DNA of 64,000 nucleotides from an uncultured Candidatus Saccharibacteria bacterium (GTDB lineage: Bacteria; Patescibacteriota; Saccharimonadia; Saccharimonadales; AWTP1-31): assembly GCA_964409615.1 (NCBI GenBank), contig CAYPDT010000001.1, positions 435,880 through 499,879 of the forward strand, written 5' to 3'. This document shows, piece by piece, positions 3,917-63,656 of the stretch. Position 1 is the stretch's first letter, and every line of letters starts with the position of its first letter. A model generated the notes under the pieces. It was not told the origin of the DNA and did no database searches. It saw only the letters and a list, made by a program, of their open reading frames with translations. The position numbers were made by a program, and so were the translations under genes.

Positions 3917-4764
3917 GATAGATGTGTAACCGTGCCAGATACACCACCGCCAGTCAGTCCAGTTCCAGCAATTACGCCGTTAATACCGCCCGCTGCACCC
4001 GTAACAGTTATCGTTCCGGTGTTTACGTCTGTAGATATGCTGACACTGCCCGAACCAACTATCGATGCGCTGCCGTTATTAGAAATGCCATTCAAACTAG
4101 ATAGAACTGTTGACTGTAGAGCACTGAGTGGAATTGTTTGACCAAGCCTAGTAACGCTACCGTCCAGTCGTTCGTTGCTGAGTGTGCCTTCGGTAATATT
4201 GCTGGCGTTGAGGTTAGTCAAAGCCGCACCACTGCCCTGAAAACTAGCAGCAGCTACGCCGCCAGAGATGTTAATGTTGCCCACTTGAGCAGGGCCACCA
4301 AGTACCGGGCTCAAGCTTACGGTATTACCCAAAATACTCGCTAGGTCGTTCAGGGCCTGGGCTGATAAATTAAGCTTACCTTGTACGGTTAAATCGCCGT
4401 TGATGGTGACCGTTTGATCGTTTAATGACTGAACCGGTAACAGGGTATCATCACCAAGGACAGGATTTTGCACGGTGTTGTAGGCGTCGATAGTGCTTTG
4501 GTTTTTGCTAGCATTCTTAACTTTGCCAGCAAGTCGTAATGCTGCGAGGCCAAGTCCGGATACAAAAAACATAACTACCAGCAGCAGAATTGCCTGCTTT
4601 TTCCAAGGTCGTGTTGGTCGACTTTTGATTTGTGTCAAGTTTAACTCAGGTTTTTGAGGTACATTAACAGAAGCAACATCAGCGTTAGCCGGTGCCTGCT
4701 GTAGGCTTTCTAAACCGGTTGTCTTTACTTGCTTATTCTGCAAGTCTAACTGCTTATTATTCAT
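3850..4764 (-). CDS. Truncated paralog of the giant fibre protein N-terminus (304 aa); probably the 5' half of a frameshifted chimera with 1229..3916
   Basis: Residues ~49-280 are identical to giant-protein residues ~42-273 (cytoplasmic tail, TM helix ILLLVVMFFVSGLGLAAL, first repeats). After the homology breakpoint (3924) only 24 unrelated codons precede the stop. It overlaps the start of 1229..3916 in another frame. Confidence 0.5.
   Translation of the reverse strand: MNNKQLDLQNKQVKTTGLESLQQAPANADVASVNVPQKPELNLTQIKSRPTRPWKKQAILLLVVMFFVSGLGLAALRLAGKVKNASKNQSTIDAYNTVQNPVLGDDTLLPVQSLNDQTVTINGDLTVQGKLNLSAQALNDLASILGNTVSLSPVLGGPAQVGNINISGGVAAASFQGSGAALTNLNASNITEGTLSNERLDGSVTRLGQTIPLSALQSTVLSSLNGISNNGSASIVGSGSVSISTDVNTGTITVTGAAGGINGVIAGTGLTGGGVSGTVTHLSWNRLVILMLPLLWMYQLVITA
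3924..4621 (-). repeat. 698-bp direct repeat, copy 1 (identical to 13157-13854, offset 9233)
   Basis: Aligned by eye at both boundaries. Translations are identical in three frames: the 304-aa versus giant ORFs, and + strand shadow ORFs 3922..4104 / 4138..4344 versus 13098..13337 / 13371..13577. Confidence 0.9.
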
Positions 4765-11600: not shown

Positions 11601-13976
11601 TCCGTTAACATCCAACGTATAGCCAGCCGTTGCTTGGCCAATGGCAATACGAGTGTTGGTTGTGTCGGCAACAAACAAGTTGCTAGCAGCGGCATTTTGA
11701 ATCTGGAAGGCAGTGGTTGAATCGGTAGCGTTTTTAAAGAGGTTAGCAGCACTAAATGTTTGAGCACCGTTCAGCTTTGCAATATTACTGTCGTTACTCA
11801 AATTAGCACTGCTGATCTGAGTGCCATTAACTTGGAATTGGCCCGTAGTGCTAATGTTGCCGCTGGCGTCAATCTTGGCAATTACGTTGTTGCTGGCATC
11901 TGTAGCTTGGAGCAAGTTAGCAGTCTGGCTTGTTTTTGCCTTGAGTACAACTGTTGGACTGGTGGTAGCTGTCGATTCAATGTTAAAGTTGGCACCCGTC
12001 TGAAGTGAGGTACCGTTTTGGATGTAGAAATTAGCCCCTGCACTTGCTGCACAACCACTGGCATCACAAACCAAGTTACCGCCTACCCGTAAGCCAGTAG
12101 CAGAGTTAATATCTCCGTTAACATCCAATGTATAACCAGCTGTTGCTTGGCCAATGGCAACCCGAGTGTTAGTGCTGTCTACCGTGAATACGTTGGTTGA
12201 ACCCGCGGCATTCTGTACGCGAAATGCAGTGGTTGAATCTGCGCCTGCTTTGTATAATCCACTAGCTCCAATTGTCACTAAGCTGCCGGTATCGCTAATC
12301 GAGCTATCGCCTATCGATTGACTGCCGGTAAATTTAGCCAGTTTGTTAGTGTTTCCACCAAGCGTTGTAACACCACCACCAGCGCTTGCACAGTTACCAA
12401 CAGTAGTACAGAGCGTATAGGTTCCGGGGGAGGTAGCGGCATCGAGATTGTAAATTACATTTCCGGTGGGTGTTCCGGTAAAACCGAGGCTCACCGTACC
12501 CGAACCACTGGTAGCAGTCAGCTTAGTAGTCAGGTCACCCTGCAGCGTCAGCGACTGATTAGTAGCACCGATGACCATCGAAGCTGATGGTTGAATAACG
12601 TTTACAGTCAGCGGTTGAGAAAAGACCACATTGCCAGTGAATGTTTGGTTAGCATTCAATAGGGCAACGTTGGCGCTTAATCGCCCGTCGGCTAAGGTAC
12701 CAGCACTGATATTGCTGGCGTTGAGGTTGGTTAAAGCCGCACCGCTGAGGGCTGGTAGATTACCGCTGTTATCAAGTTTTACTAACTTGTTAGCTAGGTT
12801 GAAAGTATTGCCCTGCAATGTAACGTTTGCCCCCAAACGCGCATCGGCTAAGGTACCAGCACCGATATTGCTGGCGTTGAGGTTGGTTAAGTTTGTTGCG
12901 CTGATTACGGGCAGCTCACCCGCGCCATTAAGCTTGACCAGTTGGTTGGTACCGTTAAAGGTGTTGCCTTGCATGGTGACGTTAGCACTCAAACGACTGT
13001 CACTAACAGTGCCACTACTGATATTGCTGGCGTTGAGGTTGGTTAAGTTTGTTGCGCTGATTACGGGTAGTTCGCCTGCGCCATTAAGCTTGACCAGTTG
13101 GTTGGTACCGTTAAAGGTGTTGCCTTGCATGGTGACAACGCCACTATCTACATCGAGTGTAACCGTGCCAGATACACCACCGCCAGTCAGTCCAGTTCCA
13201 GCAATTACGCCGTTAATACCGCCCGCTGCACCCGTAACAGTTATCGTTCCGGTGTTTACGTCTGTAGATATGCTGACACTGCCCGAACCAACTATCGATG
13301 CGCTGCCGTTATTAGAAATGCCATTCAAACTAGATAGAACTGTTGACTGTAGAGCACTGAGTGGAATTGTTTGACCAAGCCTAGTAACGCTACCGTCCAG
13401 TCGTTCGTTGCTGAGTGTGCCTTCGGTAATATTGCTGGCGTTGAGGTTAGTCAAAGCCGCACCACTGCCCTGAAAACTAGCAGCAGCTACGCCGCCAGAG
13501 ATGTTAATGTTGCCCACTTGAGCAGGGCCACCAAGTACCGGGCTCAAGCTTACGGTATTACCCAAAATACTCGCTAGGTCGTTCAGGGCCTGGGCTGATA
13601 AATTAAGCTTACCTTGTACGGTTAAATCGCCGTTGATGGTGACCGTTTGATCGTTTAATGACTGAACCGGTAACAGGGTATCATCACCAAGGACAGGATT
13701 TTGCACGGTGTTGTAGGCGTCGATAGTGCTTTGGTTTTTGCTAGCATTCTTAACTTTGCCAGCAAGTCGTAATGCTGCGAGGCCAAGTCCGGATACAAAA
13801 AACATAACTACCAGCAGCAGAATTGCCTGCTTTTTCCAAGGTCGTGTTGGTCGATTTTGAGAAATTTTGGGTGACGAAGTAGAAGCAGCACGCTCATTAG
13901 CCGGTGCTTGTTCTAAGCTCTCTAAACCGGTTGATTTGACTTGCTCATTTTGCAAGCCTGCCTGTTTGTTATTCAT
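5604..13976 (-). CDS. Giant membrane-anchored tail-fibre-like surface protein with C-terminal Peptidase_S74 intramolecular-chaperone domain (2,790 aa)
   Basis: Short cytoplasmic tail plus one TM helix. Three 52-aa tandem repeats. Recurring fibre segments (TAFQIQNAAG..LFVADT.NTR.AIGQATAGYTLDVNGDIN). Five CBM4/9-like modules (NPSFD..T.GW ... W.RYTCTFTT ... F.VDA.Q.E). C-terminal SDKRLKENISETRYTLDDLL...TGFLAQDLYAIFPDAV...VDYGRLTPLIVKSVQQL matches the Peptidase_S74 (endosialidase chaperone) consensus. Confidence 0.9.
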   Translation of the reverse strand: MNNKQAGLQNEQVKSTGLESLEQAPANERAASTSSPKISQNRPTRPWKKQAILLLVVMFFVSGLGLAALRLAGKVKNASKNQSTIDAYNTVQNPVLGDDTLLPVQSLNDQTVTINGDLTVQGKLNLSAQALNDLASILGNTVSLSPVLGGPAQVGNINISGGVAAASFQGSGAALTNLNASNITEGTLSNERLDGSVTRLGQTIPLSALQSTVLSSLNGISNNGSASIVGSGSVSISTDVNTGTITVTGAAGGINGVIAGTGLTGGGVSGTVTLDVDSGVVTMQGNTFNGTNQLVKLNGAGELPVISATNLTNLNASNISSGTVSDSRLSANVTMQGNTFNGTNQLVKLNGAGELPVISATNLTNLNASNIGAGTLADARLGANVTLQGNTFNLANKLVKLDNSGNLPALSGAALTNLNASNISAGTLADGRLSANVALLNANQTFTGNVVFSQPLTVNVIQPSASMVIGATNQSLTLQGDLTTKLTATSGSGTVSLGFTGTPTGNVIYNLDAATSPGTYTLCTTVGNCASAGGGVTTLGGNTNKLAKFTGSQSIGDSSISDTGSLVTIGASGLYKAGADSTTAFRVQNAAGSTNVFTVDSTNTRVAIGQATAGYTLDVNGDINSATGLRVGGNLVCDASGCAASAGANFYIQNGTSLQTGANFNIESTATTSPTVVLKAKTSQTANLLQATDASNNVIAKIDASGNISTTGQFQVNGTQISSANLSNDSNIAKLNGAQTFSAANLFKNATDSTTAFQIQNAAASNLFVADTTNTRIAIGQATAGYTLDVNGDINIAAGNSFRINGVAICGPTATCAPSSGSNNYIQNGLTTQTANLNIQSASSSSVVAVVQGATGQTADLLQARDQNNDVVAKITSTGAIYQGSNQVCDTSNNCGYAIGSGSNNYIQNGTSTQTANMNIKSADANSVTATIQGSTAQVADILQVTSGGGSTLLGVSQNTTNIITNPSFDVDTSGWSALGNASIARSTTDQYIGLGSLLVTTTAAANDGARYNYQFAASTSYAVSFYSRVNTTQWGSMQITFTNDGTTQSNCVNNQVVLVGGWTRYTCSFTTSASVSGTRFIGIRQTDATARSFYVDAVQVEPGTTTTAFQQGTIALNGVVNSPVVIRTQSNSNTAFSLQNATGTNIFSLSNTGNGGATVSNGFALSSVGSMSVTAAAASALTVSGGGAFSQYANSNVYNGGSLTVGDTTQNATPLIVNPSAGTNLFGTVSNFDTGTGGVSALGSATLTRSTAEQYAGIGSLRIATTAAANDGVRQIWTNLALNTTYTLSVYAKASGSSFSTFEMGYTDNTTFTSCLTGQTVSSAVWQRYTCTFTTPASVVRNVYYRQTDAISRVFFVDAMQIEIGSTLTPYQEATLSFSGMFTSPAVFRNQSDTTTAFQIQNNAGTSNLFVADTYNNRVAIGKATASYTLDVAGDINSTTALRVGGNQVCDSTGCTVSSSANNVIKNQTTTQTANMNIQSANAANVTAVIQGAGAQTADILQVKDGTAQATPIFSVNQVTPNLIDNSGFDTDTSGWTALGSSTFSQITSPTFVGDGALSFSGTTASDGVKYTYALASNTTYTLSYYGRYTAGWTNAYTGRSENGSTNTDCNNHNWNIPANTWSRMTCTFTTGTVSGSTYLYIRHSGPMYIDGVQLELGSVATEYQPGQIDLNGVISSSLRLRNATDSQRALSIQNAAGADQMSFNTSTGVLCVGPCTSANITGGAGANSYLGAASLQLGPGSTGTLSVGSGGYGNVFAVNSGTSNVVAIQQFTQDANKVGLMVQGFSGVQTTDILQVKGGNTVNNILSVSQNNSNLIVNPSFDTNTTGWTNLNSTSFARTTAETYSGPAGLAVGPTAATGDGVRQSYSLATSTTYTFSFYAKGASAFSTLEAGYVVGSTYTSCATAQAVTTGWNRISCTFTTPGSWGGTPSLYVRQTDATARTFYLDAFQLETGSTPTNYSLGNISLNGTINSPATFRNQSNSTSAFQIQNATGTPQLTFDTTSTGALNIFNSSNRALTISNNKISNNANVLQLEATAGNTVEVVNSGSSDSFPAFKVTGSAAAAVQAQIKGAAAQTADIFQVQGGNTSNNVFTVRQNNANLLTNPSFDVNINGWTAFTGDTISRTTTDQYSGNGSLSNVTTASANAGAFATFALAANTQYSFSVYARASGSNFSTFQMGYTNDGSTNTSCLTGQTVSTTGWTRYTCTFVTSASVSGTRYVYYRQTDATARTFFVDAAQLEISSAATLFNLGSINFNGVINSPTTFQNQSNSVDAFRINNATGIPIFAIDTTTGAVSLGSTSGESGTMNISTGTGTLTINIGTGGIGGKTINIGTGAVANAITIGNTSSSTVLVRAGNYYSVDGGSIYMNACNSCLMQIGLNGWQQYISIGNSSGNTSLATNSGTGGTSLTSTGAVNITTGGSYGGTFSFGGAGLYLQSTGNVVLGGNTSTAQISLAPNLSSGKLELGGSSSNAMTGNIDIGVGNGAQTLNFGTGAAAKTINIGGITTTTNISLKVGATGTNGVTVLTGKTSGTQNLFTFTDGSGDNLGSISIDTTANTTTYNTTSDKRLKENISETRYTLDDLLQISVADYSFITDSTHRTQTGFLAQDLYAIFPDAVKVGGSDPSTDPWAVDYGRLTPLIVKSVQQLNTKVDRLSARVDVLQLSQAAWSGGIVGQTTEFQNLVSFDSFVTFKDKVTFRSDVAFDGRVTFADKDLAGIVTMKAGTKTAHVSFTRPYIEAPIVTVSPKDSAAGYAVKNVQADGFDITVPSNAPADIDFNWIALSVKQSP
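7238..11093 (-). repeat. Five ~290-aa super-repeats (fibre segment plus CBM4/9-like module) within the giant gene
   Basis: The module-start Asn codons of N(P/S/F).FD lie at 11079-81, 10281-83, 9396-98, 8517-19 and 7659-61 (aa 966, 1232, 1527, 1820, 2106). Confidence 0.8.
12663..13130 (-). repeat. Three tandem 156-bp (52-aa) coding repeats in the giant gene
   Basis: Units 12975-13130 and 12819-12974 are near-identical (MQGNTFNGTNQLVKLNGAGELPVISATNLTNLNASNI..GT..D.RL.ANVT). The third unit, 12663-12818, is diverged. Confidence 0.85.
13157..13854 (-). repeat. 698-bp direct repeat, copy 2 (5' coding module of the giant fibre gene)
   Basis: See copy 1. The upstream flanks (13855-~14060 versus 4622-~4850) are homologous but diverged. 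The downstream flanks are unrelated. Confidence 0.9.
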
Positions 13977-31201: not shown

Positions 31202-31981
31202 CTAGTCCTTCAAGTCCTTCCCGGTTAAATCAATAAACACATCCTCCAGGTTAGCCTGTTCGACATGCTGCTTCTTACTAAATCCACGAGCCAGCAACTG
31301 TTTAATAAGATTCTTGGGTGTATCGATAGTTACAATCTTGCCGTTATCCATAATAGCTACTCGGTCACAAAGTAATTCGGCTTCATCCATGTAATGTGTG
31401 GTCAAGATAACAGTCACGCCTTTAGCTTGAATATCACGAATCAAATCCCATAGGTTGCGCCGAGCCTGTGGATCGAGGCCAGTAGTTGGCTCATCCAGGA
31501 AAAAGACTTTGGGCTTATGGACCAAAGAGGCAATAACGCTAAACCGCTGCTTTTGGCCGCCAGAAAGCTTCTCGACATAACTGTTGGCCTTATCGGCCAG
31601 GTTCACTTCCTCCAAAAGCTTCTTAGCATTCACCTTCACGCCGTACGCCGAAGCCATCTGCTCTAGCTGTTCAGTAAGCTTTACACTCGTCATAAAGGCT
31701 GGACTTTGTGGTTGCACGCCAATGATATACTTCACTGCTTGTGGGTCTTCTGCAACGTCGATACCGTCTACCAAGGCTTGCCCACCATCAATCGGCCGCA
31801 ACGTTTCTATCATTTCTAAGGTTGTAGTCTTACCAGCACCATTAGGGCCCAAGATACCAAACACTTCGCCCTTTTTAACACTAAAGGTTATACCTTTAAC
31901 TACCGTTTTATCATCATACTTTTTAGTAAGTCCGGTAACCTCGAGAATTGGTTTACCGCCTTGAATTGTTGCTTTTACCAT
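31202..31981 (-). CDS. ABC transporter ATP-binding protein (259 aa)
   Basis: Walker A GPNGAGKTT, signature LSGGQKQR, Walker B FFLDEPTTGLD, H-loop TTHYMDEA. Confidence 0.92.
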   Translation of the reverse strand: MVKATIQGGKPILEVTGLTKKYDDKTVVKGITFSVKKGEVFGILGPNGAGKTTTLEMIETLRPIDGGQALVDGIDVAEDPQAVKYIIGVQPQSPAFMTSVKLTEQLEQMASAYGVKVNAKKLLEEVNLADKANSYVEKLSGGQKQRFSVIASLVHKPKVFFLDEPTTGLDPQARRNLWDLIRDIQAKGVTVILTTHYMDEAELLCDRVAIMDNGKIVTIDTPKNLIKQLLARGFSKKQHVEQANLEDVFIDLTGKDLKD

Positions 31982-31987
31982 AACATA

Positions 31988-31996
31988 ACTATATCA
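31988..31996 (-). promoter_or_regulatory. Extended -10 (TGaTATAGT), 6 nt upstream of the ABC ATPase ATG 31981
   Basis: Read directly on the minus strand; no SD. Confidence 0.5.
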
Positions 31997-31999
31997 GAT

Positions 32000-32137
32000 G
32001 TCCTGCGTATCCTGCGGCCACCTGACCGCTCACGCGCGGGTGGTCTGGCAACTGAACTGCAGAAAATATCGCATTTCTTTGCCAGACCAAACCGGCTGCG
32101 CTTGCGGAGAGTCAGGTAGCTGCACAATACGCAGAAC
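32000..32137 (-). repeat. Long-hairpin element, copy 1 (candidate structured RNA, minus-strand sense)
   Basis: 27-nt outer arms (32000-32026 / 32111-32137, 22 of 27 paired). The 84-nt core is roughly 80-85% identical by eye to the reverse complement of copy 2. The inner 10-bp helix is GGTCTGGCAA/TTGCCAGACC. Confidence 0.8.
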
Positions 32138-32151
32138 GCAGAAAATAAGTA

Positions 32152-32180
32152 CAAAAAAACGACCCGGGTGGTGCCCGGGC
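32152..32180 (-). terminator. Rho-independent terminator after the 65-aa gene
   Basis: On the minus strand: CCCGGG-CACCA-CCCGGG stem-loop, then TCGTTTTTTT. Confidence 0.75.
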
Positions 32181-32204
32181 CGCTCGTATCCAATATAGTC
32201 AGAA

Positions 32205-40356: not shown

Positions 40357-40416
40357 TCCAAGGTCCGACCTTGGAAACCGTCAATTTCCAAGCTGTTTCC
40401 AAGGTCGGACCTTGGA
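40357..40416. promoter_or_regulatory. Paired 19-bp palindromes, copy A (TCCAAGGTCCGACCTTGGA - 22 nt - TCCAAGGTCGGACCTTGGA); candidate operator
   Basis: Units at 40357-40375 and 40398-40416. Each is a perfect 9-N-9 palindrome. Located between the divergent tsaC and mscS starts. Confidence 0.6.
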
Positions 40417-56187: not shown

Positions 56188-56219
56188 CCCGTAAGGTGTT
56201 TGTTAAACGCACCCGCTTG

Positions 56220-56281
56220 TCCAAGGTCCGACCTTGGAAAAAGGACAGTCTATCCAGCTGTTTCCAAGGTCGGACCTTGGA
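56220..56281. promoter_or_regulatory. Paired 19-bp palindromes, copy B (same units, 24-nt spacer); candidate operator upstream of aspS
   Basis: Units at 56220-56238 and 56263-56281. The spacer is homologous to copy A (..GTC.AT..CCA(A)GCTGTT). The flanks CACCCGCTTG / CAAGCAGCGGGTG extend the inverted repeat. Confidence 0.6.
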
Positions 56282-56434
56282 CAAGCAGCGGGTGGGTATA
56301 TTTTAGTTGGCTGAGGGAGGGTCGAGTACGTAGCAAAAGAACGCCGGCTTAGCTACCGACCCGAGAATTTCTATTAGAATTGCGGATTGCACGTACTATT
56401 ATCATATTAAGTAAATTATATCATGTAATCTGAA

Positions 56435-62863: not shown

Positions 62864-62868
62864 GCAAT

Positions 62869-63016
62869 AGCCCACTCACAGAGCCCACTGCCACTAGACT
62901 CTCCGTCAGCGCAGCCGGGTTGGTATGACAAGGAAATGCGATAATGTTATTGCAGTTCAGTTGTCATGCCATCCGCGCGTGAGCGGTCTAGTGGCAGTGG
63001 GCTCTGTGAGTGGGCT
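62869..63016 (+). repeat. Long-hairpin element, copy 2 (candidate structured RNA / terminator, plus-strand sense)
   Basis: Perfect 31-bp outer arms (62869-62899 / 62986-63016), an 86-nt conserved core, and an inner helix GGTATGACAA/TTGTCATGCC. A T-run (63021-63026) begins 4 nt after the 3' arm. Confidence 0.8.
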
Positions 63017-63656
63017 AAGCTTTTTTGTTGGCTGATTCGATATCGTGGTACAGCCATTGTTTACGGGCATAAGTTTCGACACTCTTAAGTAGCCCTTGTG
63101 GGTGCTCGCCGGCAATCATACTGGAACGAATTTTTGTTGAGGAAATAAGTGGCTGTGTATTGGTTGTGTGCCACAGTGCTAATGGCTGAACCGGCAGATG
63201 CTGAGCCTGTTGAACTATAACCTCTGAAGAGACGCCTTCCCGCTCTGCCACAATAATCTCAACTTGTTGCAGCATATACTCTACGTGGGGCCATTGCTCT
63301 GGAAAGTGGGTAAGGTGGTCGAATAAATCAGCTCCCAGCAAAACTGCAAGAGTATCCTTGGGGAAGCGTTTTTGTAAGTGCCCCATGGTGGTCTTTGGCA
63401 GAAAGTATTTACCAGGCAAATCAAGCACCCCTAACCGTGGATGAGCTCGCACAGCAAGCTCCAACATAGCTATACGGTGAGCAATATGGCTAACCTGCGG
63501 CTTGCGGCGGGGCTTGACCTCTGGTGCGAAATAAACCATGTCTAGATGGGCAACCTTTAGGGCGTGTAAGGCAAAAGTTACATGCCCTTTGTGTACCGGA
63601 TCAAAACTGCCCGAGAATATACCAATTCGCCGCGGGGTTTTTGAGGTTTTAGACAT
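63015..63656 (-). CDS. nadD: Nicotinate/nicotinamide-nucleotide adenylyltransferase (213 aa)
   Basis: IGIFSGSFDPVHKGHV (GxFxPxHxGH) and ISSTKIR (the ISST.IR motif). Confidence 0.85.
   Translation of the reverse strand: MSKTSKTPRRIGIFSGSFDPVHKGHVTFALHALKVAHLDMVYFAPEVKPRRKPQVSHIAHRIAMLELAVRAHPRLGVLDLPGKYFLPKTTMGHLQKRFPKDTLAVLLGADLFDHLTHFPEQWPHVEYMLQQVEIIVAEREGVSSEVIVQQAQHLPVQPLALWHTTNTQPLISSTKIRSSMIAGEHPQGLLKSVETYARKQWLYHDIESANKKA

Follow-up and report, generated by a model that had tools for sequence, protein, structure and literature searches.

Among described bacterial repeats, the closest in form to the element reported here are the Correia/NEMIS elements of Neisseria and the ERIC-type repeats, intergenic single long hairpins of 100–160 bp that lie in untranslated regions (UTRs) or between genes and show insertion polymorphism between strains. 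These families have conserved terminal inverted repeats, occur in tens to hundreds of copies, and make a TA target duplication on insertion. RNase III cleaves long regular duplexes, such as the stems of rRNA precursors and other duplexes flanking mature RNA. Correia stems are themselves bound and cleaved by RNase III, and can alter the expression of neighbouring genes (PMC2649163). Orphan structured RNA motifs of the Rfam type have covarying structure, invariant internal-loop nucleotides and a restricted phylogenetic range. Here we describe a hairpin element present twice in a 64-kb stretch (the window, which is all of the source genome that was covered) of contig CAYPDT010000001.1 from an uncultured Candidatus Saccharibacteria bacterium. 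Like the Correia/NEMIS and ERIC-type repeats it is an insertion that folds into one long hairpin; unlike them it has a core that is conserved, covaries and contains invariant loops, each copy has arms of its own, the copy number is one or two and no duplication of the target is visible. Its conservation pattern is thus the reverse of theirs, and their defining features do not hold for it. We put at about even strength the interpretation that it is a structured RNA module, low in copy number and not described before, in which the core is clamped by a duplex of free sequence and which occurs in a subgroup of Saccharibacteria (Saccharimonadales-like, TM7).

Copy 1 occupies positions 31995–32141 with its sense on the minus strand, and copy 2 occupies 62868–63017 with its sense on the plus strand. 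A covariance-model search of the window gave these two sites only, at 115.4 bits (32012–32127, minus strand) and 121.8 bits (62883–63000, plus strand); the next, unrelated match scored 17.6 bits. In copy 1 the conserved core (32027–32110, minus strand) contains the motifs AGCCGG, GAAATGCGA, TGCAGTTCAG and CCGCGCGTGAGCGG. The 5′ outer arm (32111–32141, minus strand), CTGCGTTCTGCGTATTGTGCAGCTACCTGAC in the sense direction, pairs with the 3′ outer arm (31995–32026, minus strand), the distal end of which lies against the TATAGT sequence (31988–31993) of an ATP-binding cassette (ABC) transporter operon. In copy 2 the core (62900–62985, plus strand) is enclosed by two 32-nt arms on the plus strand: the 5′ arm (62868–62899) starts 4 nt past the stop codon of a Kef-type antiporter gene, and the last 3 nt (CTA) of the 3′ arm (62986–63017) are the stop codon of the NadD gene on the minus strand, followed by AGCTTTTTTG. 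The copies are inverted relative to each other and 30.8 kb apart, and inversion of the intervening segment by recombination between the two cores could in principle take place.

The cores are 84–86 nt long and 81–87% identical, and over its full length copy 1 aligns with the reverse complement of copy 2 at 81%. An earlier note on this DNA had put the core identity at 80–85% by eye, in keeping with aligned blocks at 87% (32017–32061 against the reverse complement of 62951–62995) and 83% (32067–32120 against 62890–62943). Its account of the 10-bp inner helix is also borne out: the helix reads GGTCTGGCAA/TTGCCAGACC in copy 1 (32042–32051/32079–32088) and GGTATGACAA/TTGTCATGCC in copy 2 (62922–62931/62961–62970, with one U·G pair), and the copies differ by two double compensatory changes (C-G to A-U and G-C to A-U) and one change from A-U to G·U. 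The outer arms of copy 1 have no sequence likeness to those of copy 2, each pair being self-complementary, as had been claimed. Those of copy 2 are indeed fully complementary, over 32 of 32 nt and not the 31 given previously. Among the first 27 arm pairs of copy 1, 22 are Watson–Crick and five are not; the five comprise three that are G·U on the minus strand, one A·C (G·U on the plus strand) and one true mismatch, again as counted before. The palindrome of copy 2 (62861–62868/63015–63030) reaches both flanking stop codons and extends to AAGC/GCTT, including the TAA of the Kef gene. Folding z-scores ranged from –7.7 to –14.8 over the four strand readings of the two copies, with none of 200 shuffles as stable, and the folding energies were –85.3 kcal/mol on the minus strand versus –75.4 on the plus strand for copy 1, and –110.8 on the plus strand versus –97.2 on the minus strand for copy 2.

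Exact-pattern scans of genome and metagenome collections, made from the conserved blocks, returned four true homologues: L013 in Ca. Saccharibacteria UBA5152, L011 in an uncultured-bacterium metagenome-assembled genome (MAG), and L019 and L022 on metagenome contigs. The best of these outside matches, together with flanking proteins annotated as Candidatus Saccharibacteria or Saccharimonadales, assigns the window to Saccharibacteria (TM7). Another homologue, L034, came from a look-up of the locus orthologous to copy 1 in a relative, and the family thus numbers seven distinct members, the two window copies included. Near-identical strains carry the same copy 1 (L002–L006) or the same copy 2 (L030, L032). 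Twelve other pattern-scan matches (L007–L010, L012, L014–L018, L020, L021) were rejected as chance occurrences in GC-rich DNA, and three pattern scans of viral contigs gave either chance matches inside coding DNA (L001, L050) or none. With the covariance model, no further copies were found in 28 sources (324 kb in total, of which ~260 kb are related contigs), nor in the window with filters off.

Blocks common to all members are AGCCGG, GAAATGCGA, TGCAGTTCAG and CCGCGCGTGA(G/A)(C/T)GG. The inner helix has a different sequence in each member, and its pairing is complete in every one. The arms are likewise unique to each member: they pair at 31/31 positions in L019 and 30/30 in L034, form 25 pairs with one bulge in L013, and are less perfect in L011, L022 and copy 1. 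Between members, arm identity is 13–53% over 30 aligned arm columns, and the likeness is limited to a few core-adjacent pairs. Across the family the core measures 84–92 nt, the inner helix 7–10 bp and the arm duplex 25–36 bp.

The RNAalifold consensus is a single rod. From base to tip it consists of P1 (the arms), an 8–12-nt 5′ bulge, a covarying 2-bp helix, a 3 × 4 internal loop (GNA/GUGA), a 5-bp GC helix that is invariant and bears a bulged C, the inner helix with its variable sequence, and an apical domain in which GAA-A-UGCG ... UGCA-G-UUC-AG is invariant and the AU-rich loop above it is variable. About 45 positions are invariant, unpaired loop nucleotides among them, and the invariant parts of the core include AGCCGG...CCGCGC. 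Both sides have changed in 23 of the 41 pairs across the seven members, which upholds the earlier view that structure is conserved over sequence. In the observed structure 87% of cells are paired, versus 30–42% when the 3′ partners are slid by 1–3 columns, and on each of five measures none of 500 shuffles matched the observed value. The 2-bp helix falls within a 3′ motif that is conserved apart from it (GAGCGG, GAGTGG, GAACGG), and its changes are matched by covarying ones on the 5′ side (AAGCGC, GAACGG, AAGTGG); alongside it, an alternative CC:GG pairing of the 5′ bulge with the 3′ motif is possible in all members.

The same strand is the more stable one in all seven members, by 2.5–12 kcal/mol in single-sequence energies, and the consensus energy is –42.75 kcal/mol for the sense strand versus –38.14 for the antisense strand. 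One predicted G·U pair, in the apical domain, is invariant (7/7), and the antisense strand has C·A mismatches exactly at the sense-strand G·U positions. The earlier note had argued from two copies that both point to the same RNA sense, and the preference of all seven members for the equivalent strand bears this out. Its proposal of a structured RNA is sustained as far as the covariation and common sense strand go, the sequence being compatible with a single-stranded DNA hairpin as well. The predicted energies favour a strand-specific single-stranded form, for which RNA would be the simplest candidate, by a modest margin.

The age of the element can be judged at the copy-1 locus. In L034 the gene order is that of the window: a gene for a 65-amino-acid protein, a terminator, the element and the ABC operon. 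The ABC ATPases of the two lineages are 94% identical in protein sequence and differ at 51% of third codon positions, so that synonymous sites are close to saturation. Over the same distance the cores have kept 73% identity, with full compensation of the changes in the inner helix (TGGC/GCCA to GACC/GGTC); the core at this locus is evidently under purifying selection. The arms are only 40% identical over 30 aligned columns, no more than those of unrelated members, and the L034 arms pair at 30/30 positions by Watson–Crick rules. Since the arms have turned over in place at an orthologous locus with their pairing kept, the unrelated arms of other members need no special origin.

The copy-1 locus is empty in L047, L036 and L041. 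L047 is slightly more distant, at 91.5% identity to the window and 91.9% to L034, the corresponding values for L048, which is also without the element, being 88.8% and 90.6%; L036 and L041 are more distant still. The empty site of L047 has ~37 nt from the terminator to TATAGT, and in L036 and L041 the gaps from the 65-amino-acid gene to the ABC gene are ~90 nt. Most simply, the element would have been gained once, before the window and L034 lineages parted, and then kept for a long time. As a separate observation, L047 and L048/L049 have ABC ATPases that are 99.6% identical, but the gene upstream is the 65-amino-acid gene in L047, whereas L048 has a Peptidase_C39_2 gene there, a sign that the DNA immediately before the ABC operon was rearranged recently.

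The copy-2 locus is empty in L023, L024 and L025–L028. In relatives with NadD at 82%, 67% and 59% identity, the convergent NadD and Kef genes are separated by 28, 24 and 2 nt, and copy 2 is therefore a gain. Copy 1 is 81% identical to copy 2 but only 73% to L034, its orthologue by position, a difference suggestive of duplication within the lineage. NadD ends in ..HDIESANKKA* in the window and in ..HDIESATHSID* in L023, which is without the element, so the insertion appears to have remodelled the end of NadD. Two origins of the arms were considered and rejected. The first, that they are inverted copies of the local flank made at insertion, is not borne out: the empty sites L023 and L047 contain neither of the arms, no convincing likeness of the arms to ancestral spacers or gene ends was seen, and turnover in place accounts for the data. 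Insertion into a pre-existing palindrome is at odds with empty sites that are without a palindrome and with the rarity of long palindromes in the window.

Strain variants of copy 2 allow recent change to be followed. L045 and L046 provide the left arm, L033 the right arm, and L029 the right arm only; L045 and L033 are taken as one strain because they come from a common run, SRR22387748. Compared with the window, 8/32 left-arm and 6/32 right-arm positions have changed. At four positions (6, 13, 15 and 19) there is complementary change on both sides, where 0.2–0.5 would be expected (P = 7e-5 to 2e-3). Four arm pairs are still mismatched in the SRR22387748 strain (9, 21, 22 and 28), and position 1, in the NadD stop codon, differs too. 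Changes affect 14/64 arm versus 2/64 core positions (61 core positions compared; Fisher p = 0.002), the core being ~seven times slower than the arms. The flanking genes of these variants show a third-codon divergence of 9–16% and a gene divergence of ~3–6%. Judged against these values, the arms appear to drift at a roughly neutral rate and in concert, with the core constrained.

Rfam 15, searched with the whole window at gathering thresholds, gave zero matches, in agreement with the earlier note, which could place the element in no known RNA family. With copies 1 and 2 as queries and E-values allowed up to 10, the best matches reached 20.6 bits (gathering threshold 45.5) and 15.7 bits (gathering threshold 68), both with E >0.5; the phage and plasmid collections gave no blastn match. 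By motif comparison, and with no support from Rfam, signal recognition particle RNA, 6S RNA, Y RNA, self-cleaving ribozymes, group II domain V, K-turns and sarcin-ricin loops were set aside as misfits. TIGR arrays are tandem arrays with an adjacent Tas gene, and so are not applicable. The core contains no conserved small open reading frame (ORF): the ATG in GAAATGCGA meets stops at varied places (MR* in copy 2, MRY* in L013, 14 amino acids in copy 1). As for an intrinsic terminator, a T-run follows copy 2 only and is lacking in copy 1, L013, L019 and L034, and copy 1, L034 and L022 adjoin ordinary, separate terminators.

The earlier note had also held that the element is not a miniature inverted-repeat transposable element (MITE), because the termini differ between copies. 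The termini are indeed not conserved, and it is thus not a classical MITE; many near-identical copies, a further MITE trait, are also wanting, the 64-kb window having two and the remaining loci searched having none. Both window loci do, in contrast, show one MITE trait, polymorphism for the presence or absence of the element at orthologous sites. The empty sites in relatives amount to an insertion polymorphism, so that a mobile or duplicative history is real, though not that of a MITE. No direct repeat that could be a target-site duplication flanks copy 1, copy 2 or L034, read against the empty sites L023 and L047.

Integron attC sites, REP/REPIN sequences and retron non-coding RNAs also form strand-specific hairpins in which structure is in part conserved over sequence. 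In attC the base of the stem (the R and L boxes) is conserved and the apex varied, the opposite of this element, in which no GTTRRRY/RYYYAAC pair is conserved. REPINs have conserved arms and a RAYT gene, whereas here the arms are unique per copy and no RAYT (TnpA_REP) is found among the called genes near copies 1 and 2. Retrons have an adjacent reverse transcriptase; the element instead has a downstream ABC transporter (copy 1) or a convergent NadD gene (copy 2), with no such domain listed. By type of evidence the element is an orphan structured RNA motif, set apart from others of that class by its closing duplex, which is unusually long, almost perfect and free in sequence, and by gain at loci in place of a fixed address.

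The genomic surroundings bear on how such an RNA might be made. The intrinsic terminator of the 65-amino-acid gene (32157–32185, minus strand) is outside the element, 15 nt upstream of copy 1 in the sense direction, and is kept in L034 and L047. TATAGT lies 6 nt before the ATG of the ABC gene (31979–31981), and copy 1 does lie, as had been stated, between this terminator and the promoter of the ABC operon. The same sequence stands 5–7 nt ahead of the ABC ATG in three lineages (the window; L034, 2986–3003; L047, 157–170), which is consistent with a leaderless ABC operon mRNA. Where a –35 box of the operon would be expected, the window has the 3′ arm of copy 1. The Kef-type antiporter and NadD genes converge on copy 2, which takes up all of the space between them. 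Four of the seven members (copy 2, L013, L011 and L022) lie between convergent genes; L022 sits between the stop codon of a gene and that gene's own terminator, and copy 1 and L034 between a terminator and the next operon. A consensus scan of the copy-1 and copy-2 regions gave no promoter belonging to the element itself. Six of the seven members are downstream of the preceding gene in the same orientation, a pattern suggestive of transcription as part of a 3′UTR or by read-through. No transposase, reverse-transcriptase or integrase domains are listed among the called genes within ~10 kb of copy 1 and ~4 kb of copy 2, nor are there HUH or recombinase genes within these distances.

In the RNA interpretation, the element would be transcribed as part of 3′UTRs or intergenic read-through, and the invariant helices and internal loops of its core would probably form the binding surface for a trans-acting factor. 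The inner helix and arm duplex would be free in sequence, with only their pairing required. The long duplex might serve as a clamp or as a processing stalk, and in architecture, though only in that, it is like the stalks processed by RNase III in rRNA precursors: a duplex of 25–36 bp flanks a conserved RNA, with pairing kept and sequence free. RNase III cleavage of the duplex would release or stabilise the core, and might in addition provide convergent transcripts with capped 3′ ends. The RNase III step, taken on its own and argued by analogy, we consider doubtful. On rare occasions the entire element, arms and core together, would be duplicated into intergenic DNA to give a new copy, and the arms would be kept near-perfect by concerted evolution, through template switching within the hairpin during replication together with selection for pairing.

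Several points weigh against the RNA interpretation. It takes sense-strand transcription for granted, and it arrives at the RNase III step and the protein partner by reasoning. The position of L019 between recJ and rpsU, antisense to both, means that a sense-strand transcript is not guaranteed by context, and the 6/7 orientation count is not significant. The sense strand has only a modest energetic advantage, and was itself the strand on which the structure had been predicted. The family consists of seven sequences, and the search patterns forced the presence of some of the motifs. As for the arms, three are perfect, with 93 bp in total and zero G·U, and in the imperfect ones G·U is at most a little more frequent than A·C, at 7 versus 3 (ungapped, with the distal stretches of copy 1 included), plus 0 versus 2 in the SRR22387748 strain; the arms thus have more of a DNA-level character than the core. 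Pure selection at the RNA level would tolerate G·U, so these counts point to a DNA-level process or to a need for pairing on both strands.

Intra-hairpin template switching fits as the maintainer of the arms, and a requirement that both strands pair fits the arm data as well. Template switching can create and repair perfect stems and produce multi-base compensated changes in one event (PMC8794818). The element resembles such hairpins, which undergo quasipalindrome correction, in its perfect stems, its joint multi-base compensated changes and its arms that drift in sequence but stay complementary (PMC8794818; see also PMC13100816). Template switching is, however, a mutational mechanism and not a functional class, and would account for the arms but not for the conserved core.

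The same arm data are what would be expected of a non-autonomous mobile DNA element, in which both DNA strands matter. Under this explanation, the main rival, which we regard as rather unlikely, a strand-specific hairpin (single-stranded DNA or a cruciform) is the substrate of a trans-encoded enzyme, for example an HUH endonuclease or a tyrosine recombinase; the core is the recognition site, the arms aid extrusion and no target-site duplication is made. Both window loci are empty in relatives, with neither arm present there, and the closeness of copy 1 to copy 2, greater than to L034, suggests duplication within the genome. Some members occupy non-orthologous loci, and L019 and L022 have cores that are 91% identical in different contexts. 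The antisense placement of L019 and the preference of insertions for convergent-gene gaps, the least harmful places, are likewise natural for mobile DNA. The copy number, however, is very low, no two copies have common arms, neither a target-site duplication nor conserved termini are seen, and no gene for any of the enzymes sought lies within the distances given above. Purifying selection on the copy-1-locus element until synonymous saturation would be unusual for a selfish element that does not multiply, and G·U positions conserved on one strand suit RNA at least equally well.

A more modest explanation, which we consider improbable, is a generic cis hairpin with no trans role, which would terminate transcription in both directions, insulate the flanking genes or shield their 3′ ends from exonucleases, with the core kept by common descent only. 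The frequency of convergent-gene settings (4/7), the T-run after copy 2, the great stability of the hairpin on both strands (–64 to –115 kcal/mol) and the symmetric Watson–Crick arms, needed if both transcripts are to fold, would all be accommodated. The U-tract is nevertheless confined to copy 2, and the separate terminators (copy 1 and L034 come after one, L022 before one) imply that termination is otherwise provided for. Nor would such a hairpin keep ~45 invariant positions, unpaired loops included, across synonymous saturation, or a core that changes ~seven times more slowly than its arms. It is scarcely credible that the element is a product of chance, an assembly artefact or a member of a known RNA or mobile family: short-read contigs do often break inside it, but it has been assembled identically in several independent samples (L002–L006, L030, L032) and has homologues in unrelated assemblies, and the searches of Rfam and of the phage and plasmid collections gave nothing credible. 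More speculatively, and in our view with little likelihood, the sequences may represent a new, hairpin-borne type of genetic element in the ultra-small bacteria of the candidate phyla radiation (CPR), either a ~90-nt core that copies itself without a nearby transposase, terminal repeats or target duplications, its 30-bp arms being constantly rewritten and made perfect again by template switching within the hairpin, or a core RNA that is excised from host transcripts as a portable processing or regulatory cassette.

Very little literature on non-coding RNAs or repeat elements of Saccharibacteria or other CPR bacteria was found, our searches giving nothing relevant. Being well supported, absent from Rfam and 73% identical in its core at a third-position difference of 51%, the element makes a tangible candidate, in these reduced genomes, for a functional RNA or a hairpin-recognising system that is new. 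It also offers a natural case of stem maintenance, with near-perfect pairing through complete replacement of the sequence and compensated multi-site changes between strains, and so bears on the old question of the way in which RNA stems undergo compensatory evolution, to which template switching is a proposed answer. There is a practical side as well. At the copy-2 locus in other samples (L029, L031, L033, L045, L046), short-read contigs stop inside the element; since contigs end within the long palindrome, the family is probably truncated or under-counted in metagenome assemblies, MAGs included.

Other repeats occur in the window. A second, unrelated palindromic repeat of 19 bp, TCCAAGGTC(C/G)GACCTTGGA, is present in pairs ~41–43 nt apart at 40357–40416, between divergent ORFs, and at 56215–56286; the arrangement resembles a double operator to which a dimeric DNA-binding protein would bind. 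An exact direct repeat of 300 nt is found at 3924–4223 and 13157–13456, 9.2 kb apart, and the 7–12 kb region of the window contains many 60–80% identical repeats with a period of ~860–880 nt. These repeats, those at 6–13 kb among them, suggest one or more very large repetitive genes.

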